From positions 24,466 to 88,465 of the forward strand of contig JBGSRW010000008.1 in assembly GCA_041737355.1 (NCBI GenBank): DNA of 64,000 nt, read 5' to 3'. Below, in pieces: positions 4,131-40,814 of the stretch. The stretch is from Patescibacteria group bacterium (lineage in GTDB: Bacteria > Patescibacteriota > Patescibacteriia > XYB2-FULL-38-15). Made by a program: the position numbers and the translations under genes. The number at the start of each line of letters is the position of its first letter. Position 1 is the first letter of the stretch. Below the pieces are notes generated by a model, which did not search any database, was not told where the DNA came from, and was given only the letters and a program-made list of their open reading frames with translations.

Positions 4131-5384
4131 ATGGAGAACGGCAGCAAGGAGATTGTGGTTGGCAAGGAGCCGACGGCTACGGCCGAGGCGTTCCTCGAGC
4201 CGCCGAGCGAGGACGACGAGTGGTTGCTCCTGGATTTCAATCCGGCGGCGACCGAGTCCGCGCCGGCCGTGCCCGAGACGCCGAAGCCCAAGCCGCCGCG
4301 CGTCTGCGCGATCTGCCAGCACCCCTCCGGGAATTCGGTGGGCAAGATCAAGCGCGGGCGGATCGCCGAGGTCGAGCACGAAGGGATGAAGCTGCTCACG
4401 CTCGAACCAATCTGCGAACCGTGCGGCGAGAAGTTGCCGCCCGAGGAGCGGAAGAGGCTCTTCAAGGCGGGGTACCTCATCTCCCTGATCGGCGAGAAGA
4501 ACCGCGAGATGCGCGAGTTCGAGGCGGCCAAGGCCTACTGGGCTGCGGTCTTCGCCGGTACGGCAGAGCGGATGCCCGAGGCTCGCAAGACGCCCGAGGA
4601 GATGCTCTCCTGCGGGGTGCCCGGCTGCCCCCGCTGTCACGATCAGGTCGGCCACAAGGTCGGCCACTTCGTGGCGATGACGATCGGCGGCATGCCGACG
4701 CTTCTCGGGGTCTGCTCCTTCCAGGCCGCGGCCTTGGCACAGTGCGGGGTCGAAAAGAAGGGCATCGTCGTGACGACGAAGTTCTCCGTGGCCGCCCCGA
4801 TCGTCGAGGCGGAGAACGCCAGGCTCCAGGCCTTCGAGAAGGCCAAGAGTTTCTGGCTCGCCGTGGCCGAAGGCGAGGCGGCGGTCGAGGCGCGGGCCGA
4901 GAAGACCGAGCGCGGCGACATCTACCGCTGCGGCGTCCCCGGCTGCAAGTGCCGGGAGCACGGCGACCGGCCGGTCGACTACTTCGTGGTCTTGGACGGC
5001 CAGCCCGAGATGCCCATCGCGGGTGTCTGCCGATACCAGTATGCGGCGCTCCGGACCTCCGGGGTGAAGATCTTCGCCGCGAACAACAACGACGGGATGG
5101 GCCTCGCGCGGTGCGCCAAGCACCGCAACTGGCTCCTCGGCCAGGCCAAGAGGGCCATCCGCGACGTCCGGAGGCCGGACGGAATCGGCGGCGGTCTCTC
5201 CCGTTTCCGCTCGCCCGAAGAACAGGCGCGGATCCGCGAGGAGAAGCGCCGGACGTTCGAGGAGCGCGAGGCCAAGCGCCGCTCCCGGCAACTCGAGCGG
5301 GCCAAGGCCTCCTCCAGCAAGGCCGGCTGCGGCAAGAAGGCCAGCAGCAAGAAGGGCGGCAAGGGCGGCGGCAAGAAGCACTAG
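4131..5384 (+). CDS. Hypothetical high-GC Cys-rich protein with N-terminal zinc ribbon, two tandem CxxxxCxxC...C modules and a Lys/Arg-rich C-terminal tail
   Basis: RBS AAGGAGG at 4117-4123, 7 nt before the ATG. High GC with GC-rich third codon positions. Zinc ribbon CAICQHP...CEPCGEK. Duplicated module CGVPGCPRCHDQ...GVCSFQAAAL and CGVPGCKCREHG...GVCRYQYAAL. Tail KKASSKKGGKGGGKKH. Antisense and alternate-frame ORFs are Arg/Pro-rich artefacts. Confidence 0.6.
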   Translation: MENGSKEIVVGKEPTATAEAFLEPPSEDDEWLLLDFNPAATESAPAVPETPKPKPPRVCAICQHPSGNSVGKIKRGRIAEVEHEGMKLLTLEPICEPCGEKLPPEERKRLFKAGYLISLIGEKNREMREFEAAKAYWAAVFAGTAERMPEARKTPEEMLSCGVPGCPRCHDQVGHKVGHFVAMTIGGMPTLLGVCSFQAAALAQCGVEKKGIVVTTKFSVAAPIVEAENARLQAFEKAKSFWLAVAEGEAAVEARAEKTERGDIYRCGVPGCKCREHGDRPVDYFVVLDGQPEMPIAGVCRYQYAALRTSGVKIFAANNNDGMGLARCAKHRNWLLGQAKRAIRDVRRPDGIGGGLSRFRSPEEQARIREEKRRTFEEREAKRRSRQLERAKASSSKAGCGKKASSKKGGKGGGKKH

Positions 5385-17217: not shown

Positions 17218-17244
17218 CCGAATTTTTGATGCATCAAAACAAAA

Positions 17245-17275
17245 GCCCTTTTATCAGGGTTTTTGTTTTTTTTAT
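17245..17275 (+). terminator. Rho-independent terminator after pilin gene 2
   Basis: GCCCT-TTTATC-AGGGT stem extended by A/U pairs, then TTTTTGTTTTTTTT. Confidence 0.5.
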
Positions 17276-17283
17276 AAGGTTTT

Positions 17284-17294
17284 TGTGCTATAAT
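17284..17294 (+). promoter_or_regulatory. Extended -10 promoter TGTGCTATAAT upstream of pilD
   Basis: TGnTATAAT 145 nt upstream of pilD ATG 17439. Confidence 0.45.
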
Positions 17295-17305
17295 TTAATA
17301 ATATG

Positions 17306-17437
17306 CCCCGTTAGAAGTCTTTGACGGAAAAATTTTTTAATAAAATTTTTCCTTGTGGCAGAACGGGGATTATACACGAATTTTTTCTTTTTTAAAAGAC
17401 GCAAATAAACATTTAAAATTATAAACTTCTAACGGGG
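17306..17437 (+). promoter_or_regulatory. pilD 5' leader with three mutually exclusive pairing elements (candidate translational attenuator/riboregulator)
   Basis: CCCCGTTAGAAGT (17306-17318) is the perfect reverse complement of ACTTCTAACGGGG (17425-17437), which abuts the start codon and contains the only SD-like GGGG. A middle decoy AACGGGG sits at 17362-17368. The 5' element can pair with either downstream copy. Confidence 0.35.
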
Positions 17438-17438
17438 T

Positions 17439-18224
17439 ATGGCGCTAATTATCGTCTTTATTTTTGGCTTAGTCATCGGAAGTTTTTTGAATGTCGTAAT
17501 CTGGAGACTGCATACGGGGGAATCGGCTCTAAAAGGCCGCTCTTATTGTCCGAAATGCAAGCACCGCTTGGATTTTTTTGATTTATTTCCGGTCATGAGT
17601 TTTGTAATCCAGGGAGGAAAGTGCCGTTATTGCCGCGAGTCAATTTCCTGGCAATATCCGTTTGTTGAATTGGCTACGGCCGCGCTTTTTGTCATGGCTT
17701 ATGTAATTTCCGATTTTTCCGCCGAAGGAGGATTGGTCTTGGGTAGGCAACTTTTAATTCTGCTGAAGTATTGGTTTGTTGTCTCCGCGATGATTATAGT
17801 TTTTGTTTATGACGCTAAACATTATTTGATTTTGGACAAAGTAATCTATCCCGCGGCAGCCGTCGCGTTTTTTGCCAGTCCGCTTCTTTCGGGAGACGTT
17901 TGGTGGCGGGGAATTCCGGACGGTCTTTTAGCGGCGGCGATCGGCGGCGGATTTTTTCTTTTTCAATATGCCGTGTCAAAAGGAAAATGGATTGGCGGAG
18001 GGGACGTAAAATTGGGATTTTTGATGGGTTTATTTTTAGGTGTTAAGGGTTTGCTTGTGGCTTTCTTTTTTTCTTATTGCCTCGGGGCCGTCGTCGGGCT
18101 TGGTCTTGTCGCGGCCGGCAGAAAAAACATGAAAGGCCAGCTTCCTTTCGGGACTTTTTTGGCCGCCGGAACCCTTATCGCTTTATTTTGGGCCGAACCG
18201 ATCTTGAAATGGTATTTAAATTAA
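17439..18224 (+). CDS. pilD: Prepilin peptidase / N-methyltransferase PilD (A24 family)
   Basis: N-terminal tetracysteine CPKCKHRLDFFDLFPV...GKCRYCRESISWQYP, multiple TMs, 261 aa. Confidence 0.9.
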   Translation: MALIIVFIFGLVIGSFLNVVIWRLHTGESALKGRSYCPKCKHRLDFFDLFPVMSFVIQGGKCRYCRESISWQYPFVELATAALFVMAYVISDFSAEGGLVLGRQLLILLKYWFVVSAMIIVFVYDAKHYLILDKVIYPAAAVAFFASPLLSGDVWWRGIPDGLLAAAIGGGFFLFQYAVSKGKWIGGGDVKLGFLMGLFLGVKGLLVAFFFSYCLGAVVGLGLVAAGRKNMKGQLPFGTFLAAGTLIALFWAEPILKWYLN

Positions 18225-18225
18225 A

Positions 18226-18741
18226 ATGAAAAAAGGTTTTACAATAATAGAGCTCCTGGTTGCCCTGGGTGTTTTTGTTGTCGTGACGGCCATGGTCGTT
18301 GCAAATTTCCGGGCCGGCGGCCGGAGCGACGAACTCCGAATCGCCGCCGAGACACTTATTTCCAACCTGAGAAAAGCCCAGAATATGTCCTTAGCCGGCC
18401 AGCTCACGAACGGCGTCAGCCCGCCAGGCGGTTACGGAGTTTATTTCAAATTGTCCGATGCCGATCGATATATTATTTTTTCGGACCTTGACGGAGATTT
18501 GGGATATACCGCGGGCGAAGCTCTTTTAGACGGAACAATAATTTTGCCAAAAGATATCAGAATTTCAAATATCCAGCCGGCAGCCGTCTCAAGTGCAATT
18601 TTTAAACCGCCAAAACCGGTTATTTATATCAATGGGGGAATTTCCGAGGCGACTCTTTCAGTGACCTTACAGCATAATTTGAGTGGCAAGACGCGGACTG
18701 TCACGGTTAAGAGAATTTCGGGACAAATCGGAACCGAATAA
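18226..18741 (+). CDS. Minor pilin / pseudopilin (prepilin-type N-terminus)
   Basis: MKKGFTIIELLVALGVFVVVTAMVVANF is a class III signal. Confidence 0.7.
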   Translation: MKKGFTIIELLVALGVFVVVTAMVVANFRAGGRSDELRIAAETLISNLRKAQNMSLAGQLTNGVSPPGGYGVYFKLSDADRYIIFSDLDGDLGYTAGEALLDGTIILPKDIRISNIQPAAVSSAIFKPPKPVIYINGGISEATLSVTLQHNLSGKTRTVTVKRISGQIGTE

Positions 18742-18747
18742 TTTTTT

Positions 18748-19350
18748 ATGGATTTTAATTATAAAAATTTAAAGTCTGAGACGGGTCAAAGCTTGGTGGA
18801 AATGATTATTGCCATCGCGATTATTTTAACCGGCTTGATCGGCGCGATTGCCTTGACTATCTCAAATTTAAGCGGATCGGCGGAAGCCGGAACCATGGTT
18901 GTCGCGACAAATTTGGCAAAAGAGGGGATCGAGGTGGCAAGAAATATCAGGGACGCGAATTGGTTAAAAAATTTGGCATGGGACAACGGTTTGTCTTCGG
19001 GCGCGGATTACACGGCAATAGCGGTTTTCAATCCGGCGACAAAACAATGGGGCCTCGATTTTTTACCAAACAGTATTTCCGACGCGGCGGCGAAACTTTA
19101 TCTTTCGGCGGATAATTTATATCTTCAAAACTCAACTCCGCCGGTAGGAAATCAGACGATTTATTCCAGAATTTTGACGTTCGGCCAAATTTGTTTTAAT
19201 ACATCAACTAAAACTGAAACTGTAAGCGACAGTCCTTGTGGAGGGGGAGAAAATAAAATCGGTATAAGAATAAAGGCCGATGTGGCTTGGATTTTGAGCG
19301 GGAAGTCGAGGAGTCTGACGGTTGAAGATAAAATTTACAACTGGCGGTAA
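18748..19350 (+). CDS. Minor pilin (PilV-like, prepilin-type N-terminus)
   Basis: GQSLVEMIIAIAIILTGLIGAIAL is a prepilin cleavage/methylation domain. Confidence 0.65.
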   Translation: MDFNYKNLKSETGQSLVEMIIAIAIILTGLIGAIALTISNLSGSAEAGTMVVATNLAKEGIEVARNIRDANWLKNLAWDNGLSSGADYTAIAVFNPATKQWGLDFLPNSISDAAAKLYLSADNLYLQNSTPPVGNQTIYSRILTFGQICFNTSTKTETVSDSPCGGGENKIGIRIKADVAWILSGKSRSLTVEDKIYNWR

Positions 19351-19351
19351 T

Positions 19352-19924
19352 ATGAATAAAAAGGGATTTACCTTGGTAGAAATGATGGTAGTTCTGGCAA
19401 TTTTTTCGGTTGCCACGGTTGTGGTTGTCGATATTTTTATGATGGCGTCGCGCGCCGAACGCCGGACTTTGGCTATTCAAAAAATCCAGTCCGACGCGCG
19501 TTATTCGCTAGAAGCCATGGCGCGGGAAATCAGGATGGACATGATTGATTACGATTATTACAACGGAACAATAAATGAAGTGCCAAGCGGAACTTTGGCT
19601 TTGCGCGACCAGGACGACAACCAGATAATTTTCAAAAAAAGCAATGGGAATTGTCCGATCGGTACGACGAATTGCCTGGTTGTTTCTTTGGATGGTACAA
19701 ACTGGGAAAGCATCACTGCCCCGGGAATTGATGTGCTTGATCTAAAATTTTATATTGATCCGACGGTTGATCCATTTAAACCTAACGCCGGTTTTACTTA
19801 CGATTCGGATAATCATCCCAGAGTAACGATTGTTCTTGTGTCAAAAGGCGTCGGCGGGCGTCCGGACGAGCAGCAGACAGTATATTTGCAGACGACCGTT
19901 TCAAATAGAATTTATAGAAGATAA
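19352..19924 (+). CDS. Minor pilin (PilW-like, prepilin-type N-terminus)
   Basis: MNKKGFTLVEMMVVLAIFSVATVVVV. Start reassigned to ATG 19352, just after the upstream stop. Confidence 0.65.
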   Translation: MNKKGFTLVEMMVVLAIFSVATVVVVDIFMMASRAERRTLAIQKIQSDARYSLEAMAREIRMDMIDYDYYNGTINEVPSGTLALRDQDDNQIIFKKSNGNCPIGTTNCLVVSLDGTNWESITAPGIDVLDLKFYIDPTVDPFKPNAGFTYDSDNHPRVTIVLVSKGVGGRPDEQQTVYLQTTVSNRIYRR

Positions 19925-19930
19925 AAAGCA

Positions 19931-20791
19931 ATGAGAAAAAAAAGATTTAAAAAACAAACGGGCAACGTACTTCTTTTGTCTTTACTCGTCATGGCGGGGA
20001 TTATGACGGCCGGGCTTGGCATTGGTGCGATTATTATAAATGAAATAAGGCAGGCGCGGAATATTGATTTTTCGGCTCTGGCCTATTACGCCGCCGAGTC
20101 GGGAGTCGAACAGGCGCTATACAAACTTCGGAAAGAGGAAGCGCTCCTAAATTGTCCGGCCGGAGTTTGCGGTGGGAACGGTTTTTGCACTACGGGAAAC
20201 CAGGAGCCGTGCTTGAAGAATAGCGAAAATTTGAGTAATCAATCCTCTTGGACAAGAGCCGTAACCGATAAGGAATGGCAAATTTATGGTAAAATCAAAA
20301 AAGACGAAACGCTCCAGGTAGATCTTTACGATCCGGAAGGAACCTCGGCGGCCGGAGTTGAATCGGTCAAGATCCAGTGGACACCGCAATGCGTCCCGCC
20401 GGCCGTTTCAACGATCGAGATTTCCTACATTGCCTGGAATCCGGCAACCGGTTGGTCGCAAGATACGGAAAAGAAATTCAAATATTCCGCCTTGGCAAGC
20501 CCGGTGATTAATAACGGTTTCAGCAACGTTAAATCTTACCGGATGAGAATTAAATCGCTTTACTGCGATATCAGTAATTTGATAGTCACTGCCTGGGGAA
20601 ACGACAATGCCAACGTACCACAGGTACAGATTCCGGCGAGGATTGTTTTGAATTCAACCGGACAGTACAGCAATCTCCGCCAGGCGATTAAAATGACTAT
20701 GCCGCGGAAATCGCCGATGTCGGGATTGTACGACTATGTTTTATTCAGTGAGTGTTCTTTGGTTAAAGGCGAGGCGGCAACTTGTCCGTAA
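19931..20791 (+). CDS. PilX-like minor pilin / pilus-associated protein
   Basis: N-terminal hydrophobic segment QTGNVLLLSLLVMAGIMTAGLGIGAIIINEIRQAR resembles the PilX N-terminal domain. Cys-rich periplasmic part. 286 aa. Confidence 0.6.
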   Translation: MRKKRFKKQTGNVLLLSLLVMAGIMTAGLGIGAIIINEIRQARNIDFSALAYYAAESGVEQALYKLRKEEALLNCPAGVCGGNGFCTTGNQEPCLKNSENLSNQSSWTRAVTDKEWQIYGKIKKDETLQVDLYDPEGTSAAGVESVKIQWTPQCVPPAVSTIEISYIAWNPATGWSQDTEKKFKYSALASPVINNGFSNVKSYRMRIKSLYCDISNLIVTAWGNDNANVPQVQIPARIVLNSTGQYSNLRQAIKMTMPRKSPMSGLYDYVLFSECSLVKGEAATCP

Positions 20792-28331: not shown

Positions 28332-30329
28332 ATGAGTCATGAGGAAATAGCACTTTTTGCCGAAACAAATTTCCGCGGTGAGCGGAAGCGTTTCGGTATA
28401 AAGACCGACGACCGCCGCCGGCACGTTTATATTATTGGTAAAACCGGTATGGGAAAATCAACCATGCTGGAGAATTTTATTATTTCCGATATCAGAGCGG
28501 GGCACGGCGTCGGCGTGGTTGATCCGCACGGCGATTTGGCTGAGAAAATTTTGGATTTTATTCCTCCGAACAGGGTGAACGACGTGGTTTATTTTAATCC
28601 GGCAGATCTCGATTGGCCGATTGCTTTTAATATTTTGGAGTCAATCGACCCGAGATATAAGCATCTTGTCGCCTCCGGCATGATGGGAGTCTTCAAAAAA
28701 ATCTGGCCCGATGTCTGGTCGGCCAGAATGGAATATATTTTGAATAATACGATTCTCGCGCTTTTGGATTGTCCGGGGTCAACAATGCTCGGGATTAACA
28801 GAATGTTGGCTGACAAAGATTACCGGAAGAAAGTCATTCTTAAATTAAAAGATCCGGTGGTCAAAGCTTTTTGGGTTGATGAGTTTGCCAAATACAACGA
28901 GCGGTTTGCTACCGAAGCCATCGCTCCAATCCAAAATAAGGTTGGCCAATTCCTCTCGGCATCCATTGTCAGAAATATTGTCGGTCAGGTGAAGTCAACG
29001 ATTGACATGCGCGAGATCATGGATAACCAGAAAATTTTTATAATGAATCTTGCGAAAGGAAGAATTGGTGAAGATGCGAGCGCTCTGTTGGGTAATATGC
29101 TTGTTACAAGACTGCAGCTTGCGGCCATGGCACGGGTCGATGTTCCGGAACCGAAGAGAAAAGATTTCTATCTCTACGTTGATGAATTTCAAAATTTTGC
29201 CACTATAAGTTTTGCCAATATTTTATCTGAGGCGAGAAAATACCGCCTGAATCTTATTTTAGCCCATCAATATATTGAACAGCTGGCTGAAGAAGTCGCC
29301 GCTGCCGTTTTCGGAAACGTCGGCACGATTGCTTCTTTTAGGGTCGGGGCGGCCGACGCTGAAGTTTTGGAAAAAGAATTCTCCCCGACTTTCACGGCCG
29401 AAGACCTGGTAAACCTCACAAAATATGATATGTATTTAAAATTGATGATTGACGGCGTGTCTTCATCGCCGTTCTCTGCTATAGGCTTGCCTCCGGTAAT
29501 CGGTTCGACCGGCAACAGGGATAAAGTGATCAGGGTTTCCCGGGAGAGATACGCCAAACCCAAAGAAATTGTTGAAGAAAAAATTATCCGCTGGAGCGGG
29601 GTGCAGATTGCCGGGGAAGAAGAAAAATCAGACGAAGAGATTGAAGCGGAAATTAAAAAATCCATTGGAGAACAAAAAAAGACGGCAGGGGAATTAATGG
29701 AAAAAAGAACAGAAAAAGGAAGTCATGAAGTGTCCGGAGCCGAACTGGAGGCGCGGGCGATTACCGCCCGTGAGGCGATTCTTGAACGGAATAAAGTCCA
29801 AGCTGTTGATTTTCTAAGCCATTTGGAAGAAAAAAAAGAACCGGCCCCTCCGCAAATAATAGTTGAGCCTGCCCCCGTATTTATCCGTCCAACCAATAAA
29901 GTTGATATTAAGCTCGAGCTTAAAAATGAGGTGACTCCGCCAAAAGAGGAACCAAAAAGAGAACCGGCGCCAATCGTGGAAAAAGAAGTGAAGTCATCGC
30001 CGGTCCAAGTGCTTCCGAAAAAAATAGAAGAACCAAAAACTGCCGTCGTCGCACCGGCGGTTATTCCACAATCAAAAACAACGCAAGCGCCGGCCGCCGG
30101 GCAAAATAAGAAAACCCGCGAAGAACTTTTTCCTTACGAAATTAAATGTTCCGCCTGCGGCAAGCCGGACAGGGTTTCCTTCAACCCCGATCCCAACAGA
30201 CCGGTCTACTGTAAGGATTGTCTGAAAATAGAAAGAGAAAAAGAGAGGCTGGCCAAGAAGAATAAAAACGGACCGGGCGGACCGCCAAAAAAGACGGAAG
30301 AAAAATCAGTGGATAATATAAAAGTATAA
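28332..30329 (+). CDS. Type IV secretion coupling-protein-like ATPase (VirD4/TraD/TrwB family) lacking an N-terminal TM domain, with a C-terminal zinc ribbon
   Basis: HVYIIGKTGMGKSTMLENFI...GVGVVDPHGD (Walker A plus TrwB-type context). Walker B YLYVDEFQNF about 240 aa downstream, consistent with an all-alpha insertion. RKYRLNLILAHQYIEQL motif. C-terminal Glu/Lys-rich region, then CSACGKPDRVSFNPDPNRPVYCKDCL. Confidence 0.6.
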   Translation: MSHEEIALFAETNFRGERKRFGIKTDDRRRHVYIIGKTGMGKSTMLENFIISDIRAGHGVGVVDPHGDLAEKILDFIPPNRVNDVVYFNPADLDWPIAFNILESIDPRYKHLVASGMMGVFKKIWPDVWSARMEYILNNTILALLDCPGSTMLGINRMLADKDYRKKVILKLKDPVVKAFWVDEFAKYNERFATEAIAPIQNKVGQFLSASIVRNIVGQVKSTIDMREIMDNQKIFIMNLAKGRIGEDASALLGNMLVTRLQLAAMARVDVPEPKRKDFYLYVDEFQNFATISFANILSEARKYRLNLILAHQYIEQLAEEVAAAVFGNVGTIASFRVGAADAEVLEKEFSPTFTAEDLVNLTKYDMYLKLMIDGVSSSPFSAIGLPPVIGSTGNRDKVIRVSRERYAKPKEIVEEKIIRWSGVQIAGEEEKSDEEIEAEIKKSIGEQKKTAGELMEKRTEKGSHEVSGAELEARAITAREAILERNKVQAVDFLSHLEEKKEPAPPQIIVEPAPVFIRPTNKVDIKLELKNEVTPPKEEPKREPAPIVEKEVKSSPVQVLPKKIEEPKTAVVAPAVIPQSKTTQAPAAGQNKKTREELFPYEIKCSACGKPDRVSFNPDPNRPVYCKDCLKIEREKERLAKKNKNGPGGPPKKTEEKSVDNIKV

Positions 30330-32406: not shown

Positions 32407-32486
32407 AACCCTGTGTTATCTGCGCTCGTTCGGAAATGGAATTAATATTTCATTTCCCTCGCTCGCTTGATAATAAAATAAAATCT

Positions 32487-34232
32487 ATGACAGCTTCAGA
32501 ACTTAGAAAAAAATATCTGGATTTTTTTAAAGAAAAGAAGCACTCCGTGCTGCCTTCGGCACCTTTGATTCCGGAAAACGATCCGACTGTTTTATTTACT
32601 ACCGCCGGTATGCATCCCTTGGTCCCGTTTTTACTCGGCGAAAAACATCCGGCAGGCAAACGTTTGGCGAGCGTGCAGAAATGCATTCGCACCGGCGATA
32701 TTGATGAGGTTGGAGACAATTGGCATTTAACCTTTTTTGAAATGCTTGGTAACTGGTCGCTTGGCGATTATTTTAAAGAAGAGGCAATTAAATGGAGTTG
32801 GGAGTTTTTAACCGATAAAAAATGGCTTGGGCTTGATCAGAAAAATTTGGCAGTTTCGGTTTTTGCCGGAGACGAAGACGCTCCTTTCGATAATGAAGCG
32901 TACGACCTTTGGCGCGATTTGGGTATTTCCGAAGGGAGAATCGCCAAATTGGGGAAGGAAGATAATTGGTGGGGACCGGCCGGAAAAACCGGGCCGTGCG
33001 GGCCGGATACGGAAATGTTTTATTGGGCAGGCGTTGGCGAAGCTCCGAAGAATTTTGATCCGCAAAATAAAAATTGGGTGGAGATATGGAACGATGTTTT
33101 TATGCAATACAACAAAACCGCCGAAGGAAAATACGAACCGCTGGCTCAGAAGAATATTGATACCGGGATGGGGCTTGAGCGGACAATCGCGGTTTTAGGA
33201 GGTAAAAAAAATATTTACGAAACTGAAATTTTAGCGCCGCTTGTGGCCGAAATTAGAAGAATGGCCGGAGGGGGCGGGGAAGAAAAATCAATCAGAATTC
33301 TTGCCGATCATGTCCGGGCGGCAACTTTTGTGCTTGGCGATCCGATCGGAGTCGTTCCATCAAATATCGGTCAGGGGTACATTTTGCGCCGGTTTATCCG
33401 CCGGGCAATCCGCCATGCCAAAAAACTCGGAATCGACACTAAAGAAAATGTAGCCGTGCCTTTAGCCGAGATAGTGATTGATCTTTACAAGGATGATTAT
33501 CCAGAATTGGCGGAGAAAAAAGATAAAATTTTAAATGAACTGCAGAAAGAAGAGGATAAATTTGATAAAACTCTGGAAAAAGGGCTTAAAGAATTCGAGA
33601 GGTTAGAAAAAATTACCGGCAAAGATGCCTTTAATCTTTTTACCACTTATGGTTTCCCCCTGGAGTTAACAACGGAATTAGCAAAAGATAAGGGCGTGCA
33701 AGTTGATGTTAAAGAGTTTGAAGAAGAATTTAAGAAGCATCAGGAACTTTCGCGTACCGCTTCGGCCGGACAATTCAAGGGAGGTCTGGCTGATTCGTCG
33801 GATGAAGTGAAACGGCTGCATACGGCAGCGCACTTAATGCTCGCGGCCTTGCGTAAAGTTTTAGGCGATCATGTGGAGCAGAGAGGCAGTAACATTACGG
33901 CCGAACGGCTGCGCTTTGATTTTTCCCATCCGCAAAAAATGACGCCGGAAGAAATTAAAAAAGTTGAAGATTTGGTCAATGAGCAAATAAAAAATAATGT
34001 CCCGATTGTTTGTGAAGTCACGACTGTCGATGAGGCCAAGAAAAAAGGCGCGATGGGAATTTTTGGAAATAAGTATGGCGAAAAAGTGAAGGTTTATTCG
34101 GCTGGAGATTTCAGCAAAGAAATCTGCGGCGGGCCGCATGCCAATAGTACCGGGGAGTTGGGGCAATTCAAAGTTATCAAGGAAGAGGCCTCAAGCGCCG
34201 GAATAAGGAGAATTAAAGCCATTTTGTCATAA
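32487..34232 (+). CDS. alaS: Alanyl-tRNA synthetase, short form (catalytic, tRNA-recognition and editing domains; no C-Ala domain)
   Basis: FTTAGMHPLVP...VQKCIRTGDIDEVGDNWHLTFFEMLGNWSLGDYFK catalytic core. Editing motif HTAAHLMLAAL...RLRFDFSH. Ends about 280 aa short of canonical AlaRS. Start taken as ATG 32487 (MTASELRKKYLDFF). Confidence 0.85.
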   Translation: MTASELRKKYLDFFKEKKHSVLPSAPLIPENDPTVLFTTAGMHPLVPFLLGEKHPAGKRLASVQKCIRTGDIDEVGDNWHLTFFEMLGNWSLGDYFKEEAIKWSWEFLTDKKWLGLDQKNLAVSVFAGDEDAPFDNEAYDLWRDLGISEGRIAKLGKEDNWWGPAGKTGPCGPDTEMFYWAGVGEAPKNFDPQNKNWVEIWNDVFMQYNKTAEGKYEPLAQKNIDTGMGLERTIAVLGGKKNIYETEILAPLVAEIRRMAGGGGEEKSIRILADHVRAATFVLGDPIGVVPSNIGQGYILRRFIRRAIRHAKKLGIDTKENVAVPLAEIVIDLYKDDYPELAEKKDKILNELQKEEDKFDKTLEKGLKEFERLEKITGKDAFNLFTTYGFPLELTTELAKDKGVQVDVKEFEEEFKKHQELSRTASAGQFKGGLADSSDEVKRLHTAAHLMLAALRKVLGDHVEQRGSNITAERLRFDFSHPQKMTPEEIKKVEDLVNEQIKNNVPIVCEVTTVDEAKKKGAMGIFGNKYGEKVKVYSAGDFSKEICGGPHANSTGELGQFKVIKEEASSAGIRRIKAILS

Positions 34233-34281
34233 GGCGTTGGGGGAGTATTTGACATTAAATTGGATATCCACTAAAATAAGC

Positions 34282-34310
34282 TTGACACCTTTTAAGGGAG
34301 ATAATATAAT
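34282..34310 (+). promoter_or_regulatory. Canonical sigma70 promoter TTGACA-17-TATAAT upstream of infA
   Basis: TTGACA 34282-34287, 17-nt spacer, TATAAT 34305-34310. About 185-nt leader with GC hairpins (GACGGCG-CT-CGCCGTC, CCGCC-TCA-GGCGG). Confidence 0.55.
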
Positions 34311-34496
34311 AGTTTCAGCGGTAAAACAACTGAATTTTTTGGAACTGGGGACTCGAAAAGAGGATTCCGGGTTCTGCGGTTTTTGTTTTAGTTATCAAAG
34401 ATAAAGAGTATCAAACTCTGTGTTGACGGCGCTCGCCGTCCGCCTCAGGCGGATCTCGCTCGCTTGTCAATAAAATTAAAAAAAGCAAACCGCCTT

Positions 34497-34721
34497 ATGG
34501 TTCAAGACAAAAGTAAGGAGTTTATCGAAGTTACCGGCCAGGTTGAGGAACTTTTGCCGGCTGCCACTTTTAAAATTAAATTGGACGACGGCCACGTGAT
34601 TTTGGGGCATCTTTCGGGAAAGATGAGATTGCACAAAATCAGGCTTCTTCCCGGAGATAAAGTGAAAGTGGAGATGACCCCGTACGACTTAACCAAGGGA
34701 AGGGTTGTTTACAGATTTTAA
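34497..34721 (+). CDS. infA: Translation initiation factor IF-1
   Basis: [63 protein letters not shown] is the S1-like IF-1 fold. Confidence 0.9.
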
Positions 34722-34728
34722 TAAAATT

Positions 34729-34842
34729 ATGAAAGTCAGAGCTTCAGTCAAAAAAATTTGCCCAGCTTGTAAGATTGTTAAACGCGGAAAGCGCATTTTT
34801 GTAATTTGTAAAACCCCTAAACATAAGCAACGACAAGGTTAA
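34729..34842 (+). CDS. rpmJ: 50S ribosomal protein L36
   Basis: [37 protein letters not shown], 37 aa, Zn-ribbon CxxC...C..H. Below the ORF-track length cutoff. Confidence 0.85.
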
Positions 34843-34853
34843 TTATCATACTT

Positions 34854-35246
34854 ATGGTTGTAAGAATAGCGGGATTAATTATCCCTCCGAACAAAAGAAT
34901 AGAAATTGCCCTGGCCTACCTTTACGGGATTGGTCCGTCTCAGGCAAAGAAAATTTTAGCTTCAGCCAAAATAAACCCTGATACGAGAACACAGGCCCTG
35001 ACCGAAGATGAGGTCGGGAAACTGAGAGAAATTATAGAAAAAAATTATAAGGTAGAGGGAGATTTAAAAAGAGATGTTTTTAGCAATATAAAACGGTTGA
35101 AAGAAATCGGATCATATCGGGGCATGAGACACGCCCGCAGCCTTCCGGTCCGCGGCCAGCGTACGAAAACTAATTCACGGACAGTCCGTGGCAACGTCAG
35201 AAGAACAATGGGCAGCGGCAGAAAACCGGCCGGACAAAAAACATAA
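34854..35246 (+). CDS. rpsM: 30S ribosomal protein S13
   Basis: [24 protein letters not shown]...[23 protein letters not shown]. Confidence 0.9.
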
Positions 35247-35256
35247 TTTATAATTT

Positions 35257-35730
35257 ATGACAGACGAACAAGTAAAAAATAATGAAGCGGTGAACACCGA
35301 GGAAAAAAAAGCCTCAGGCAAGGCCGAAACCGCCGAAACAAAAGTCAAGACCGCCAAACCAAGAAAGAAAAAAGTCGTCAGACATGTTCCGATCGGCAGG
35401 GCTTATATTCAGGCAACATACAATAACACTATAGTTACTTTAACCGATCAAAACGGCAATGTGCTCAGCTGGTCGAGTTCCGGAATGTGCGGGTTTAAGG
35501 GACCGAAAAAATCCACCCCATATGCTTCTGGCATTGTGGTTAAAGACGCGGCCGATAAGGTTATTGATTACGGGCTTAAGGAACTAATTGTTTTCGTTAA
35601 AGGCGTCGGCCAGGGCCGGGAAGCGGCTGTAAGAGCTTTGAACGCCAACGGGTTCAATATTTTATCCATTAAAGATATGACTCCGATACCGCATAACGGT
35701 TGTCGGTCTCCTAAACCTAGGAGAGTATAA
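35257..35730 (+). CDS. rpsK: 30S ribosomal protein S11 with N-terminal Lys/Glu-rich extension
   Basis: [30 protein letters not shown] core. About 40-aa N-terminal extension. Confidence 0.9.
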
Positions 35731-35737
35731 CAGAAAT

Positions 35738-36367
35738 ATGGCAAGAAATTTAAAAGCAAGATGCGCAAGATGCCGTAGGGAGGGAGAAAAGCTCTTTTTG
35801 AAGGGTGAGCGTTGCTATATGACAAAATGCGGCGCTGTCCGCCGGCCATTTCCTCCGGGAATGCATGGACCTAAGGGAAAAATCAGGTTAACCGGTTACG
35901 GAATACAGCTCCGGGAAAAACAAAAGGCGAAACAAATTTACGGAATTCTGGAAAGACAATTCAGAAATTATTTTGATAAATCAAGTAAAAAGACCGGCGA
36001 TACGAGCGAATTTTTGCTTCAGCTTTTGGAGATGAGGCTTGATAACACTGTTTATCGCTTGGGTTTTGGAAAATCGCGCCAGCAGGCCAGACAGCTTGTC
36101 AACCACGGCCTTTTCTTTGTAAACGGAAAAAAGGTTTCAATTCCTGCTTATCAGGTTAAGGTTGGCGATATAATCTCAATAAAGCCGAGCGCGGCCAACA
36201 AGAAAGTTTTTCAGAATTTGCCGCAAACTCTTCAAAAATACGAAGCTCCCATCTGGCTTTCCTTGGATACCACCAAGCTTGAGGGCAAGGTTGTCCGCAA
36301 GCCGACCAAGGAAGACGTTAAAACTCAATTTGATATCAAAGTGATCATTGAATTTTATTCTCGCTAA
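35738..36367 (+). CDS. rpsD: 30S ribosomal protein S4
   Basis: CRRCRREGEKLFLKGERC...RLDNTVYRLGF, 209 aa. Confidence 0.9.
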   Translation: MARNLKARCARCRREGEKLFLKGERCYMTKCGAVRRPFPPGMHGPKGKIRLTGYGIQLREKQKAKQIYGILERQFRNYFDKSSKKTGDTSEFLLQLLEMRLDNTVYRLGFGKSRQQARQLVNHGLFFVNGKKVSIPAYQVKVGDIISIKPSAANKKVFQNLPQTLQKYEAPIWLSLDTTKLEGKVVRKPTKEDVKTQFDIKVIIEFYSR

Positions 36368-36397: not shown

Positions 36398-37216
36398 ATG
36401 GAGCCAATCATTTTACCCTCCAAAATAGAAATCAAAAAGGGAAAACTTCCGAACGAAGCGGTTGTTACTGTTGAACCGTGTTATTACGGTTACGGAACAA
36501 CTTTGGGCAACGCTCTCAGGCGCGTTATTATTTCCAGTTTGCCTGGAGCGGCAGCAACAGCGGTTAAAATCAAAGGGGTCCAGCATGAGTTTTCCACTAT
36601 TCCGCACGTCAAAGAAGACGTGATAGAAGTTCTTCTCAACTTGAAACAATTGAGAATGAAAGTCTATTCGACGGAGCCAGTAAGATTGGTTCTTAAAGCC
36701 AAGGGGGAAAAAGAAGTTACGGCCAAGGATATAGAAGATTCGGCCGACGTGGAGATAATCAATAAAGATCTGCACATCGCCGAAATGACAAGCAAAAACG
36801 CCGATCTGGAAATGGAAATTTTTGTAAGCCAGGGCCGCGGATATGTTCCGGTAGAGGCCAGAGAAAAGGAAAAATTGGAGCTTGGGGCGATTGCTATCGA
36901 TTCCATTTTTACTCCGATCAAAAATATCGGCTATAAGGTTGAGAATGTCCGCGTTGGCGATATAACAAACTACGACAAATTAACTTTGAATATTGAAACG
37001 GACGGAACTATTGCGCCGGAGGAAGCCTTGGAACAGGGGGTCAAGCTCTTAACCGATCATTTCAATCTTTTTCTTGGCAAGCCCGCGGCGGAAGAGGAAT
37101 CGGTTAAAGAGGAAACCGCCGAGGAGACTGAGCCGGCTGAAGAAAAAGAAGAGAAAGCGGATGACGCCGGAGAAAAGGCTAAGAAAAAAAGAGGAAGGCC
37201 AAAAAAGGCAAAATAG
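36398..37216 (+). CDS. rpoA: RNA polymerase alpha subunit, N-terminal domain only, with acidic tail ending in an AT-hook (no alpha-CTD)
   Basis: Alpha-NTD (VTVEPCYYGYGTTLGNALRRVIISSLPGAA...) through about aa 228. Then KPAAEEESVKEETAEETEPAEEKEEKADDAGEKAKKKRGRPKKAK. No helix-hairpin-helix CTD. Alpha-operon context (rpsD-rpoA-rplQ). Confidence 0.85.
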   Translation: MEPIILPSKIEIKKGKLPNEAVVTVEPCYYGYGTTLGNALRRVIISSLPGAAATAVKIKGVQHEFSTIPHVKEDVIEVLLNLKQLRMKVYSTEPVRLVLKAKGEKEVTAKDIEDSADVEIINKDLHIAEMTSKNADLEMEIFVSQGRGYVPVEAREKEKLELGAIAIDSIFTPIKNIGYKVENVRVGDITNYDKLTLNIETDGTIAPEEALEQGVKLLTDHFNLFLGKPAAEEESVKEETAEETEPAEEKEEKADDAGEKAKKKRGRPKKAK

Positions 37217-37239: not shown

Positions 37240-37590
37240 ATGAGACACAGAAAAAAAGGAAAAACTTTAGACAGGAAAGTCGGACCGCGCAAGGCATTGC
37301 TCAGGAACCTGGCGGTCAGCTTGATTTTGTATGAAAAAATACAAACAACTAAGGCAAAAGCTAAAACGATAAAACCGATCGTAGAAAGATTAATCACCAA
37401 GGGAAAGGTTAATACGCTTGTGGCGAGACGTAATCTTTTGAAATATTTGTACAAGGAGGCTGCCGTGAAAAAGATTCTTGAAGATATCGGACCCAGGTAT
37501 AAAGATAGAAAAGGCGGTTATACGAGAATTTTAAATCTTGGCCGGCGAGCGGGGGACGCGGCGGAAATTGTCCAAATTGAATTAGTGTAA
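37240..37590 (+). CDS. rplQ: 50S ribosomal protein L17
   Basis: MRHRKKGKTLDRKVGPRKALLRNLAVSL, 116 aa. Confidence 0.9.
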   Translation: MRHRKKGKTLDRKVGPRKALLRNLAVSLILYEKIQTTKAKAKTIKPIVERLITKGKVNTLVARRNLLKYLYKEAAVKKILEDIGPRYKDRKGGYTRILNLGRRAGDAAEIVQIELV

Positions 37591-37967: not shown

Positions 37968-38519
37968 ATGACAGCGGAAACTAAAAAACCAAAAAAGACA
38001 ATAAAGGCGGTAAAAGCGGTAAAACCGGCGAAGAAAGCCGTGAAGAAAAAAATAATTCCGGCTAAAGCGGAAGTGGTTGAAGAAAAAGAAATAATACTTG
38101 AAGAAGAAAAAATGACCGAAGAAAAAAAATCTGGATATCTTTACGCGGTCGGCAGGAGAAAACAGGCGATTGCCACCGTTAAACTTCATAAAAATGGTAA
38201 GGGCAAAATAACCGTTAACGGAAAATTTTATACAGAATATTTCCCGACAGACGATTTAGAGCAGATTGTTTCCGCGCCTCTGAAATCGGTAGGCCAGGCA
38301 GATAAAGTCGATATTGAAGCAAAAGTTTTATCCGGCGGTAAGCACGGCCAAGCCGAAGCGGTCCGTTTGGGAATTTCCAGAGCTTTGGTGCTTCTAAACA
38401 TTAATTTTAAAAAAAATTTGAGAAAAGCCGGATTTTTGACCCGCGATCCGAGATCCAAAGAAAGAAAGAAACCGGGTTTAAAGAAGGCAAGGCGGGCGCC
38501 ACAATGGCAGAAACGTTAA
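37968..38519 (+). CDS. rpsI: 30S ribosomal protein S9 with about 55-aa Lys/Glu-rich N-terminal extension
   Basis: C-terminal GGKHGQAEAVRLGISRALV...RDPRSKERKKPGLKKARRAPQWQKR. Confidence 0.85.
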   Translation: MTAETKKPKKTIKAVKAVKPAKKAVKKKIIPAKAEVVEEKEIILEEEKMTEEKKSGYLYAVGRRKQAIATVKLHKNGKGKITVNGKFYTEYFPTDDLEQIVSAPLKSVGQADKVDIEAKVLSGGKHGQAEAVRLGISRALVLLNINFKKNLRKAGFLTRDPRSKERKKPGLKKARRAPQWQKR

Positions 38520-39584: not shown

Positions 39585-39585
39585 A

Positions 39586-39614
39586 TTGACTAATACGCAG
39601 AAATAGTTCTAAAT
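39586..39614 (+). promoter_or_regulatory. Possible promoter TTGACT-17-CTAAAT upstream of small high-GC ORF
   Basis: TTGACT at 39586-39591. Weak -10. RBS GAAGGAGGG 6 nt before ATG 39636. Confidence 0.3.
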
Positions 39615-39635
39615 AAAACTAGAAGGAGGGTAGCT

Positions 39636-39821
39636 ATGGCAGAAGAAAATAGCGGGAAACCGCGGGATGATCGAAGTGATCGCGACCGTGATGTTCCAGG
39701 AATGCCCAAGGGATGGCGGCCCGGAGACCTGATCGTGATTCCGCTTGGACCTGAAGACGAATTTCCTGAGAGCAGGATGGATTTCTCTCTCCCGTTCTGG
39801 GTGGGAACGCCCGTGGAGTAG
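39636..39821 (+). CDS. Hypothetical high-GC small protein (61 aa)
   Basis: Strong SD, high GC, followed by terminator. MAEENSGKPRDDRSDRDRD... Confidence 0.4.
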   Translation: MAEENSGKPRDDRSDRDRDVPGMPKGWRPGDLIVIPLGPEDEFPESRMDFSLPFWVGTPVE

Positions 39822-39856
39822 CTCGGCCCAATCTCCACTACTGCTTGTGCCATCAT

Positions 39857-39887
39857 CGGCGCCGAGCTCCGCTCGCGCCGTTTTTTT
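39857..39887 (+). terminator. GC-rich hairpin plus T7 terminator
   Basis: GGCGCCGAGC-TCC-GCTCGCGCC followed by TTTTTTT. Confidence 0.5.
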
Positions 39888-39947
39888 ATCCATTGATTTT
39901 TTATATTAGTATGGTAAGGTAAATCGATTTCCTAAAGGAGGGAGGGA

Positions 39948-40814
39948 ATGCAAAAAAAGGAGATGTCTCCTGAAAGTGTGAGCGAGTGCGCTCGTCTGAC
40001 TGAAGCGGAACTGGCCAACTTGGGCGTTGTCCTTTCCGCCTACCGTTCTTTCCGAGGCGACCGGCGTCGACATATCGCCTACGTCACGATGCCGATCACG
40101 ACCGGCCGGCGGTTGCGCGACATCCTGACAACGCGCCACGCGAAGAGCGCCGCAGAACTTGCGGCCAAAATCGGCAGAGAGGCCTTTTTTGACCTCGTGA
40201 TCAGACCAAACATCGCGGAGGGAATTGCTTTTGCCGACAGAGTCGCAGCAAGGGATTCACTGCTTTGCGTTGCGCCTTCGGTGTTCAGTGCCAGGTGCTG
40301 GCAATGGTCGCAGGATGCCTACATGTCCCTTTGGTACCGCGTTCTGGGAGAAATGGCCGGAGCGCATTATCTCATGGACGGCTGGGAATACTCCGTCGGC
40401 GGCGTGAAAGAAGCGATGTTTTCCATGGCCATGCAGTGGCGCATCTTCCGGCGCTACAACATCCACAAGATGGCGCAGGCCTGGGGTCTAGAGAATTTTC
40501 ATCCCGGCATGAGCCCGCAAGCGGAAATAGCCGAGCTTGAGCGCATGTGGAGCATCCGCCTTTACGACGAACAGGGCAAGGAACTTCGCATCGATCAAAT
40601 CCTGGCGATGGTTGTTCGCGCAATCAAGGAGCTGGCAAAAAACGGCTTGCCGTACGAGGATCTGCTCGGCCCCGCCCGGAACCTGAAGGGGATGCCCATA
40701 CTGTCACCGCTTATCGGCGGCGGCAACCGGTATGACGAGCCGTTTGTTCCGGAAGTGACGGATGCGTACGTGATGGCGGCAGATGAGCTCGTGGCATTCG
40801 AGGCCGCCCATTAA
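39948..40814 (+). CDS. Hypothetical high-GC protein (288 aa), unknown function
   Basis: RBS AAAGGAGGGAGGG. Very high GC. Alternate frames are Arg-rich artefacts. No recognised motif (YVTMPITTGRR...). Confidence 0.6.
   Translation: MQKKEMSPESVSECARLTEAELANLGVVLSAYRSFRGDRRRHIAYVTMPITTGRRLRDILTTRHAKSAAELAAKIGREAFFDLVIRPNIAEGIAFADRVAARDSLLCVAPSVFSARCWQWSQDAYMSLWYRVLGEMAGAHYLMDGWEYSVGGVKEAMFSMAMQWRIFRRYNIHKMAQAWGLENFHPGMSPQAEIAELERMWSIRLYDEQGKELRIDQILAMVVRAIKELAKNGLPYEDLLGPARNLKGMPILSPLIGGGNRYDEPFVPEVTDAYVMAADELVAFEAAH

Follow-up and report, generated by a model that had tools for sequence, protein, structure and literature searches.

The RNA polymerase alpha subunit (RpoA) encoded in the 64,000-nucleotide stretch of DNA analysed here (the window), from a Patescibacteria (CPR) bacterium that is closest, among named relatives, to Candidatus Falkowbacteria, is almost certainly a genuine, lineage-wide variant: the helix-hairpin-helix C-terminal domain (alpha-CTD) was lost in an ancestor shared by a large assemblage of the Patescibacteria/Parcubacteria group (Falkow-, Uhr-, Magasanik-, Buchanan- and Kerfeldbacteria records), and in the Falkowbacteria-like lineage the N-terminal domain (alpha-NTD) is followed by an acidic linker of ~33-40 aa, predicted to be disordered, and by a basic tip of 11 aa that bears a single canonical AT-hook (KKKRGRPKK).

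To our knowledge, the alpha-CTD is regarded as near-universal in bacterial RNA polymerase (RNAP). Both UP-element recognition and the action of class I activators centre on this domain, which contacts A/T-rich UP elements through their minor groove. The reading preferred here, for and against which the case is evenly balanced, is that the tail would act as a tethered, AT-preferring minor-groove anchor on upstream promoter DNA, covering the DNA-binding half of the alpha-CTD role.

Gene and operon context

The features of the locus are the following:

34249..34310, forward strand: two tandem sigma70-type promoter matches (TTGACA-17-TAAAAT and TTGACA-17-TATAAT) 5' of infA, from a consensus scan (11/12 and 12/12 matches)
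34464..36367, forward strand: infA, rpmJ, rpsM, rpsK and rpsD, the operon genes 5' of rpoA (ORFs and translations)
36398..37216, forward strand: rpoA, a 272-aa RNA polymerase alpha subunit without CTD, stop codon included (ORF list; Pfam, NCBIfam and PDB matches)
36398..37081, forward strand: alpha-NTD, residues 1-228, the dimerisation and beta/beta'-assembly domain (B. subtilis alignment, AlphaFold2, conserved motifs)
37082..37180, forward strand: acidic linker, predicted to be disordered, residues 229-261 (33 aa), net charge about -10 (sequence; AlphaFold2 pLDDT <50)
37181..37213, forward strand: C-terminal basic patch with one AT-hook, KKKRGRPKKAK, residues 262-272, RGRP core at 265-268 (sequence, homologs)
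37240..37590, forward strand: rplQ (L17) (ORF list; PF01196 on an identical contig)

The rpoA reading frame begins with ATG and fits these coordinates exactly. The operon follows the usual order infA-rpmJ-rpsM-rpsK-rpsD-rpoA-rplQ, including the conserved rpsM-rpsK-rpsD-rpoA-rplQ succession, and the same upstream genes carry the Ribosomal_S11 and Ribosomal_S4 Pfam labels in an independent contig. The tandem matches 5' of infA are the probable promoters of this operon. The start of rplQ lies 23 nt past the rpoA stop, an arrangement also present in relatives, so that no space is left for a downstream CTD exon or ORF. A GC-rich spacer (39585-39947) was examined as a possible RNA gene and discarded as a candidate, having no Rfam match and folding no better than its shuffles.

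An orthologous N-terminal domain

The first-pass annotation had described the alpha-NTD as intact, which holds. The RpoA insert domain (PF01000, residues 56-172, E=5e-34) interrupts the Rpb3/Rpb11-type dimerisation domain (PF01193, residues 27-222, E=7e-23). AlphaFold2 gives pLDDT values above 90 for most of residues 11-228, with an Rpb3/alpha-like secondary structure. The RpoA equivalog TIGR02027 is matched with 270.2 bits (cut-off 227.8) and NF003519 with 291.5 bits (cut-off 277), while the other PRK05182 sub-models score below their cut-offs because the part corresponding to the CTD is absent. The archaeal subunit RpoD and the eukaryotic Rpb3 have the same PF01193/PF01000 fold and are by nature devoid of an alpha-CTD; the window protein, in contrast, is of the bacterial type, reaching only 32 bits with the archaeal subunit D model NF001988 (cut-off 153).

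Among solved structures, B. subtilis RpoA (6wvj_A) matches best: residues 23-247 of the query align with residues 23-244 of the 314-residue chain (E=2e-66), with ~57% identity between the two alpha-NTDs. Moreover, the GNALRR, SLPG and HEF motifs are invariant in 45 homologs. GNALRR corresponds to the E. coli R44/R45 region, and its conservation, with that of the NTD as a whole, suggests that the protein would form the alpha2 dimer and assemble with beta and beta'. The NTD and the synteny, with rpoA occupying the same operon slot between rpsD and rplQ as in E. coli and B. subtilis, clearly mark the window protein as a bacterial-type RpoA orthologue, although a CTD-less variant.

Loss of the C-terminal domain

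The ~80-aa helix-hairpin-helix CTD, already reported as missing in the first-pass annotation, is indeed absent from the protein. PF03118, the alpha-CTD model, has no Pfam match in RpoA even at E<=1; the NCBIfam rpoA equivalogs cover only profile positions ~3-254 of ~300-340, profile and PDB alignments of RpoA end at about residue 250 with no CTD beyond, and the alignment with B. subtilis RpoA stops at query residue 247, where the CTD would start. In comparison with the E. coli and B. subtilis subunits, the protein carries an 11-aa basic AT-hook peptide instead of the folded domain, has no activator-docking surface (261, 265 and 287 determinants) and possesses a longer (~33 aa), strongly acidic linker. 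Nor is the protein an isolated case, since PF03118 is absent from all 120 nearest protein clusters, whose members measure 238-330 aa.

The alpha-CTD could instead be encoded separately elsewhere in the genome, the hook being an add-on. A custom CTD HMM, built from 6 CPR CTDs together with those of E. coli and B. subtilis and run with --max, found nothing in RpoA or in the six frames of the 64-kb window, even at E<=10, and nothing in the ±3 kb flanks of rpoA in 74 relative species that lack the CTD; the same model recovered 6/6 CTD-bearing positive controls with E-values of 1e-25 to 1e-30, and correctly passed over the helix-hairpin-helix region of LigA. The E. coli and B. subtilis CTDs, used as tblastn queries against the window, produced chance matches only, the best-looking of which, at 60272, lies inside an HD-domain protein. 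The 64 kb searched belong to a genome of roughly 1 Mb, which leaves room for such a gene. Nevertheless, these negative searches, the proximity of rplQ and the variety of replacement tails in relatives, which argues for loss followed by compensation, make a separately encoded domain quite improbable.

A frameshift introduced by sequencing or assembly, or a truncated gene, can be set aside with practical certainty. The A-rich 3' end of rpoA does contain A7 and A6 runs, of the error-prone kind, but independent assemblies of two other sequencing runs (SRR28170473 and SRR29054603) yield the same ORF with identical homopolymer lengths and an identical stop codon. Furthermore, the whole family of nearest clusters is short, and the position of the stop and of rplQ after it is the same in other species. 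The synonymous codon variation described below also speaks against a frameshift.

The acidic linker and the AT-hook

The tail reads G227-KPAAEEESVKEETAEETEPAEEKEEKADDAGEKA-KKKRGRPKKAK272, that is, the ~45-aa Glu/Lys-rich extension ending in a canonical RGRP AT-hook that had been read from the sequence at the outset. Its last 11 residues carry a charge of about +8. Disorder is predicted over residues 229-272, and the AlphaFold2 model shows pLDDT below 50 and no secondary structure for residues 232-271, so that the hook lies within a region predicted to be disordered. The G-R-P core is preceded by R and flanked by K/R on both sides (K262-K-K-R-G-R-P-K-K-A-K272), which is the defining DNA minor-groove motif. 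The Pfam model PF02178 (AT_hook) does not appear in the hmmscan list at E<=1; it describes a 13-residue motif and the tail is compositionally biased, a situation in which the HMMER filters commonly drop short-motif matches.

A general low-complexity habit of the proteome was considered and rejected as the origin of the tail: among ~67 ORFs of the window, RpoA has the only terminus in which charged residues make up at least 50% of a 40-aa span, and its hook is the sole K/R-flanked RGRP among all six-frame ORF pieces. Moreover, of the 120 nearest clusters at 90% identity, 57 also have the hook, as [RK]GRP close to the C-terminus and preceded by an acidic linker of variable sequence. In these 57 homologs the linker spans 34-49 aa with a mean charge of -7, its length and average acidity being conserved and its sequence not. 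The hook is under purifying selection: across 12 species the codons of its R, G, R and P vary synonymously (AGA/AGG/CGC/CGT/CGA for R, GGA/GGT/GGC for G, CCA/CCT/CCG/CCC for P), and such differences between species mean that selection acts on the peptide. Its uniqueness in the window, its retention in almost half of the clusters and these synonymous changes indicate together that the hook is more than a product of chance.

The tail might instead serve a purpose other than DNA binding, as a protein docking site or an autoinhibitory or solubility/condensate element, or might be a near-neutral remnant, a tolerated low-complexity stand-in for the old interdomain linker. Consistent with this, the linker sequence is not conserved and 31 related species manage with RpoA proteins of 228-283 aa that have a short acidic stub only or no tail, from which it follows that any function of the tail is dispensable in close relatives. 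On the other hand, KKKRGRPKK is kept at the amino-acid level among proteins whose NTDs are only 50-80% identical, linker length and acidity persist despite the variable sequence, and the motif itself is of the minor-groove type, all of which renders both a role without DNA and a near-neutral remnant improbable.

Distribution of tail types

The comparison of sister CPR genomes showed that the loss of the CTD is common to Falkow-, Uhr-, Magasanik-, Buchanan- and Kerfeldbacteria-like genomes, and that related Parcubacteria retain the domain. Three types of tail are found in the CTD-less proteins: AT-hook, poly-lysine, and acidic or none. The AT-hook tail is present in 12 GTDB species belonging to at least three separate clades of the NTD tree, and poly-lysine tails occur in sister lineages (29 of 78 species), at the same position after a similar acidic linker. 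The earlier statement that the hook stands in place of the CTD is correct for the lineage of the window, but had missed that sister lineages use poly-lysine or nothing; the hook is one of several solutions and not an obligatory one.

This variety lends some weight to a more general explanation, according to which the basic tip, AT-hook or poly-K interchangeably, is a polyelectrolyte that binds any nucleic acid non-specifically, without a fixed place at promoters and without an AT preference of any consequence; it could serve in nucleoid retention, one-dimensional promoter search, or nascent RNA or ribosome binding. In addition to the poly-lysine tips and the species with no basic tail at all, the lack of a clear AT-rich element 5' of the window promoters and the weakness of the cross-species AT trend (see below) are in its favour. 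Selection for charge alone, however, predicts drift to K/R mixtures within the clade of the window, where degenerate hooks are found in only a few near relatives (IGRP in P0009, RGRH in P0035, RGKV in P0036 and RGRA in P0037). Furthermore, it is the exact R-G-R-P core that has been kept, with synonymous changes, in at least three clades, and in one relative (P0046) the module has been duplicated to give two hooks. A generic tail is thus considered unlikely, though it is the strongest competitor of the minor-groove anchor.

Promoters and upstream DNA

The first-pass annotation had linked the simplified subunit to a predominance of extended -10 promoters devoid of a -35 box. Such sites are in fact enriched in the window (8 occurrences of TGNTATAAT against 1.65 expected), and most of them have no -35, but the link was overstated: the probable promoters of the rpoA operon have perfect or near-perfect -35 and -10 boxes, an equivalent 11-12/12 promoter match lies 5' of infA in most relatives, including each of the 12 hook-bearing loci that were scored, and its consensus -35 boxes are conserved in nearly all relatives, so that -35 recognition appears fully in use.

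As regards the DNA that the tail might contact, the 8 extended -10 sites show no raised AT content between about -38 and -60 (mean ~0.51 against 0.55 for the window). The upstream DNA of the infA promoter tends to be more AT-rich in hook lineages, with an AT excess of 0.147 as compared to 0.094, a weak and non-significant trend (one-sided p=0.077) among lineages that are not independent. T-tract and extended -10 motifs were also compared with tail class at 80 loci, where the number of intragenic chance matches obscured any link.

Proposed mechanism and precedents

As each RNAP contains two alpha subunits, two flexible tethers per polymerase would be available. At A/T-rich DNA near the -35 region or upstream of it, the R-G-R-P core of each tip could enter the narrow minor groove, and this contact would add a sequence-tolerant, AT-preferring affinity for DNA, stabilising closed or open complexes. 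That the AT-hook binds AT-rich upstream DNA in place of the alpha-CTD is plausible by analogy with WhiB7 and Myxococcus CarD; where it would bind and how this would affect transcription are likewise inferred. The hook would thus represent the DNA-binding half of alpha-CTD action at UP elements, likewise a minor-groove, A-tract interaction, and both architectures place a DNA-contacting element (a predicted one, in the window protein) at the end of a flexible tether. Nothing would take over the activator-docking half, in keeping with the small set of regulators in these reduced genomes. The acidic linker probably prevents non-specific sticking of the basic tip, by intramolecular masking or repulsion from DNA, and probably sets its reach, comparable to the acidic segments of HMGA proteins and Myxococcus CarD. 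The poly-lysine tails of sister lineages may do the same job without AT preference.

Two RNAP-tethered AT-hooks acting at promoters serve as precedents for this mechanism. The AT-hook of mycobacterial WhiB7, which is tethered to region 4 of sigma-A, binds an AT-rich motif just upstream of the -35 and is needed for activation (PMC3905903). In WhiB7 as in RpoA, a single C-terminal hook is linked to an RNAP subunit, with a promoter role that is known for WhiB7 and would be analogous in RpoA; WhiB7, in contrast, is a regulated Fe-S transcription factor with a specific regulon, and the RpoA hook is a constitutive part of the core enzyme. In M. xanthus CarD, a domain that binds RNAP beta is followed by an acidic segment and RGRP hooks (PMC4374960). 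The shared plan is that of an RNAP-associated module, an unfolded acidic segment and then RGRP hooks, but CarD (a CarD_CdnL_TRCF N-terminal and an HMGA-like C-terminal domain) is an accessory factor restricted to myxobacteria with four hooks in a domain of ~140 aa, in contrast to one hook on a core subunit, two per enzyme, and there is no homology between them.

The third hook of HMGA1 is PRGRPKK, the RGRPKK core of which is identical to that of the RpoA hook. A point against the anchor model, known from HMGA proteins, is that a lone AT-hook has only a weak hold on DNA. HMGA1 and HMGA2 share with the RpoA tail its predicted disorder and the combination of a hook with an acidic stretch, differing in having three hooks and a C-terminal acidic tail and in being chromatin architectural proteins without a polymerase domain; the resemblance is convergent. 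HMGA proteins are described as intrinsically disordered, with hooks and an acidic stretch, in PMC4482583. The HMGA-like/CarD-type domain comprises 3-4 RGRP repeats and an acidic region, of which the window protein has the acidic region and a single hook; the tail may work like this family, but is not a member of it.

Regarding the loss itself, the alpha-CTD has also disappeared from the extremely reduced endosymbionts Hodgkinia and Tremblaya and from Euglena plastids, and one sentence of the same source extends this to Parcubacteria (PMC8321222). PMC4508563, the source cited for the loss in Parcubacteria, contains no statement on RNAP alpha in its text or in the supplements examined. Like the window lineage, those endosymbionts and plastids have small genomes and keep the alpha-NTD, but their case is described as erosion without replacement, in contrast to a large free-standing or episymbiotic radiation with a conserved, selected AT-hook or poly-K module. 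In the literature on the alpha-CTD of Patescibacteria/CPR or on AT-hooks with RNAP alpha, nothing relevant was found, and no description of an AT-hook tail. As far as these sources go, CTD loss in Parcubacteria was already known from that single published sentence, and the AT-hook tail on RNAP alpha appears to be undescribed.

Significance

A large, environmentally abundant bacterial group without an alpha-CTD must initiate and regulate transcription differently. In practical terms, PF03118 is not to be expected in these lineages and its absence does not denote incompleteness or misannotation; likewise, CPR promoter prediction and heterologous expression should not presume alpha-CTD-dependent mechanisms. 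If the tail binds DNA, no simpler upstream-DNA sensor of a bacterial polymerase would be known than this conserved AT-hook on a core subunit, and AT-hook RpoA would offer a natural experiment for gauging what share of alpha-CTD function comes down to tethered minor-groove affinity.

In its widest form, the proposal is that an entire radiation within the Patescibacteria has rebuilt the upstream-promoter contact of its RNAP, the alpha-CTD having been swapped for a minimal disordered acidic tether with an AT-hook in the core enzyme (a poly-lysine tip in sister lineages), giving two HMGA-like minor-groove anchors per polymerase. This is advanced tentatively, as somewhat less probable than the anchoring role itself. 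If true, the hook would have arisen or been retained independently in at least three clades, an 11-residue peptide would suffice for UP-element-type stimulation, and these bacteria would have no alpha-CTD-dependent activation at all.

The alpha subunit and its C-terminal tail

36398..37216 (+): rpoA, an ORF of 272 aa with an ATG start

The gene order around rpoA is the classical one (infA-rpmJ-rpsM-rpsK-rpsD-rpoA-rplQ-rplM-rpsI), rplQ starting 23 nt after the rpoA stop codon. Both families of the alpha N-terminal domain (NTD) were recognised by Pfam (PF01000 at residues 56-172, E=5e-34; PF01193 at residues 27-222, E=7e-23), and no match to the C-terminal domain (CTD, PF03118) was obtained in this protein even at E<=1. 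The NCBIfam rpoA equivalogs TIGR02027 (270 bits against a cut-off of 228) and NF003519 (291.5 against 277) were both passed, with the match confined to the first ~250 profile positions. Moreover, the best match of solved structure, B. subtilis RpoA (6wvj_A, E=2e-66), aligns at residues 23-244 of its 314 with query residues 23-247, thus ending where the CTD would start. Judged by NTD, score and synteny, the protein is orthologous to RpoA, but it lacks the CTD expected of that family; 'CTD-less RpoA variant', otherwise orthodox, is therefore the best label.

The tail reads G227-KPAAEEESVKEETAEETEPAEEKEEKADDAGEKA-KKKRGRPKKAK272, with a linker of net charge ~-10 and an 11-residue tip of +8 enclosing a textbook AT-hook core (R265-G-R-P268). 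In an AlphaFold2 model built on 45 homologs, pLDDT exceeds 90 over most of the NTD and falls below 50 over residues 232-271, which lack secondary structure. The first-pass annotation had described an intact NTD, a missing CTD and a Glu/Lys-rich tail ending in an AT-hook, and these analyses bear it out.

Authenticity and conservation of the tail

A 3' end truncated by a frameshift, envisaged in that annotation, or another assembly artefact was rejected and is exceedingly improbable. The identical 272-aa protein is encoded on independently assembled contigs from SRR28170473 and SRR29054603, where the A7 and A6 runs of the tail DNA and the stop codon recur unchanged and the DNA differs by just two SNPs, one synonymous and one intergenic; rplQ follows 23 nt downstream, and the nearest listed relatives are short as well. 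All of the nearest 120 listed 90%-identity clusters measure 238-330 aa and carry PF01000 and PF01193 only. In 57 of these 120, [RK]GRP stands a few residues from the C-terminus, preceded by a linker of 34-49 aa (mean charge -7) whose sequence is unconserved. The codons for R, G, R and P show synonymous differences among the 12 species compared, so that selection acts on the peptide. The tailed, CTD-less RpoA is thus real, conserved and lineage-wide, with a terminal AT-hook under purifying selection and a disordered acidic tether of conserved length. Within the window, the tail holds the sole K/R-flanked RGRP among six-frame ORF pieces, and RpoA alone among ~67 ORFs has a terminus at least 50% charged over 40 residues.

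The CTD could also have been split off and encoded at a distance from rpoA. By tblastn, the CTDs of E. coli and B. subtilis gave chance matches only in the search for a separate CTD, the best-looking of which was rejected because it lies inside an HD-domain protein. A custom HMM, built from six CPR CTDs with those of E. coli and B. subtilis, recovered six of six positive controls (1e-25 to 1e-30) and found nothing in six frames of the 64-kb window, where filters were switched off and matches up to E<=10 allowed, nor within ±3 kb of rpoA in 74 CTD-less loci of relatives. Judged from the window and these flanks, a separate CTD gene, which the first reading had proposed to look for, is accordingly improbable.

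Distribution among relatives

One genome per GTDB species was scanned, which yielded 80 rpoA loci, the nearest named relatives being Candidatus Falkowbacteria (79% and 67% identity), placed by NCBI in the Patescibacteria/Parcubacteria group, and the remoter ones Magasanik-, Uhr-, Buchanan-, Kerfeld- and Portnoybacteria. Many 'binchicken' records (e.g. loci L002, L009, L011 and L012) are titled 'uncultured Gammaproteobacteria' or 'Candidatus Saccharibacteria' and encode rpoA operons of the Patescibacteria/Parcubacteria type; their titles are evidently placeholders or wrong taxonomy, the organisms being Patescibacteria.

Translation to the stop codon gave 78 complete proteins, including that of the window. 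An AT-hook tail was found in 12, hook-like RGRK/KGRS motifs in 2 more, a poly-lysine ending (e.g. KKKAKKAAKKKK) in 29, a short acidic stub or no tail in 31 (228-283 aa), and a full helix-hairpin-helix CTD in 4. Counting all 80 loci, six bear a CTD (L048 from Portnoybacteria, L057, L059, L060, L075 and L077; 311-336 aa). On a rough neighbour-joining tree of NTDs, the hook-bearing proteins fall into three or more separate clades (the window with L001-L005; L010/L036; L030/L053/L079/L080). The comparison with sister CPR genomes suggested at the outset thus reveals common CTD loss, with poly-lysine or no tail as the lineage-specific alternatives.

An exhaustive HMMER search of 1.84 billion representatives at 50% identity agreed with this: among the best 150 matches, 77 have a CTD, and those lacking it include five separate clusters of the hook type, at least 17 poly-lysine clusters and some obviously frameshifted junk. 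In one relative (P0046, 330 aa) the linker-plus-hook module is doubled (KKRGRGRPKK and KKKRGRPKK), the first hook matching the RGRGRP form of HMGA1 hook 1. Three database 'RpoA' entries of 526-664 aa (P0121, P0126, P0231) hold two tandem alpha-NTD copies, and in P0121 a Firmicutes-type alpha is duplicated exactly within the protein; they are probably assembly artefacts.

The existence of poly-lysine and tail-less sister lineages speaks for the main rival explanation, a generic polyelectrolyte that binds nucleic acids unspecifically; the strict conservation of R-G-R-P speaks against it, and we hold it possible but doubtful.

Promoters

6322, 8646, 10273, 16113, 17286, 26872, 38529 (+) and 51038 (-): extended -10 boxes, mostly TGCTATAAT, at ~5x the expected frequency
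34249-34310: two tandem promoter matches, TTGACA-17-TAAAAT and TTGACA-17-TATAAT, before the operon holding rpoA (consensus match)

The tail had also been linked to a predominance of -35-less extended -10 promoters. The enrichment stood: TGNTATAAT occurs at 8 sites against 1.65 expected in the window, a count reached by no shuffle, with 7 of the 8 on the gene strand and most in front of genes, without a recognisable -35. The -35-less picture was overdrawn, since the rpoA operon itself is preceded by TTGACA boxes, and every hook-bearing locus scored, like most other relatives, has an 11-12/12 consensus promoter before infA; -35 recognition is thus fully in use. Several extended -10 boxes precede type IV pilus genes.

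The TGNTATAAT sites often directly follow a T-tract (TTTTTG-TGCTATAAT), which at ~-17 to -23 could be a candidate AT-hook target. The region at ~-38 to -60 of these sites shows no AT-richness (mean AT 0.51, the window as a whole having 0.55). Upstream of -35 at the conserved infA promoter, hook lineages have an AT excess of 0.147, tail-less ones of 0.094 and poly-lysine ones of 0.067, a weak trend (one-sided Mann-Whitney, hook against tail-less p=0.077, against both combined p=0.037, the lineages not being phylogenetically independent). The extended -10 scan over the 80 loci was too noisy for use.

In 34249-34463, a leader of ~150 nt with GC-rich hairpins separates the tandem consensus sigma70 promoters from infA; it may be a regulatory leader of the ribosomal-protein/rpoA operon.

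Other features of the window

4131..5384 (+): Cys-rich protein, 417 aa, containing repeats of a 'CGVPGC...' module and a basic tail rich in K/G
39636..39821: 61-aa ORF with a strong AGGAGG ribosome-binding site
39863-39885: terminator-like hairpin in the cassette after queA
39948..40814: 288-aa ORF in the same cassette

The Cys-rich protein lies in a 64% GC island (4001-6000) of the ~45% GC window, which may be horizontally acquired; long ORFs overlap 4131..5384 on both strands, and no Pfam match, Rfam match or tandem repeat was found there. The cassette after queA (39585-40814) is also GC-richer; neither of its ORFs has a Pfam match, and its spacer holds no recognisable or unusually stable RNA. 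Over positions 1-64000, neither a tRNA gene nor any Rfam family reaching its gathering threshold was found.

Two other nucleic-acid-binding proteins of rpoA's operon, S9 (37968..38519, 183 aa) and S11 (35257..35730, 157 aa), carry low-complexity, charged Lys/Ala/Glu-rich N-terminal extensions of ~55 and ~35 residues. The alanyl-tRNA synthetase (32436..34232) has just 598 aa, with the catalytic core and the SAD editing-associated domain and without the C-terminal C-Ala region; the typical bacterial enzyme has ~870 aa, C-Ala included. A type IV pilus cluster (10243-20791: PilM-like protein, PilB/T2SSE ATPase, PilC/T2SSF, several N-methyl pilins, prepilin peptidase) and, encoded apart from it, a zinc-finger-bearing coupling ATPase of the TraG/VirD4-like kind (28332..30329) are typical CPR surface/DNA-uptake equipment.

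Possible role of the tail

The chemistry of the AT-hook is established, and bacterial precedents exist for hooks tethered to the polymerase. Activation by WhiB7 needs its C-terminal hook, which sigma-A region 4 holds in place and which binds to an AT-rich motif immediately before the -35 (PMC3905903). Myxococcus CarD joins an RNAP-beta-binding domain to an unfolded acidic segment and then RGRP hooks, the same acidic-then-basic order as in the RpoA tail (PMC4374960). The tail would act like such HMGA/CarD-type modules without belonging to them, as it has a single hook and no homology.

From this chemistry and these precedents, we give about even chances to the two tails of each polymerase anchoring it flexibly in the minor groove of A/T-rich DNA, either around the -35 region or upstream of it. 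They would take over what the alpha-CTD does in DNA binding and leave its activator-docking part unreplaced. A non-DNA or neutral role of the tail is unlikely.

Loss of the CTD as such has some precedent: Hodgkinia and Tremblaya are described cases, Euglena plastids a noted one, and one sentence states that the loss 'is also present in Parcubacteria' (PMC8321222). The source cited there (PMC4508563) does not mention RNAP alpha in its text or the supplements searched. Within the literature searched, no publication on an AT-hook or poly-lysine replacement on alpha was found, and an AT-hook under selection that replaces the CTD on a core polymerase subunit seems not to have been described before. 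The AT-hook RpoA makes it testable how much of alpha-CTD function is mere tethered minor-groove affinity.
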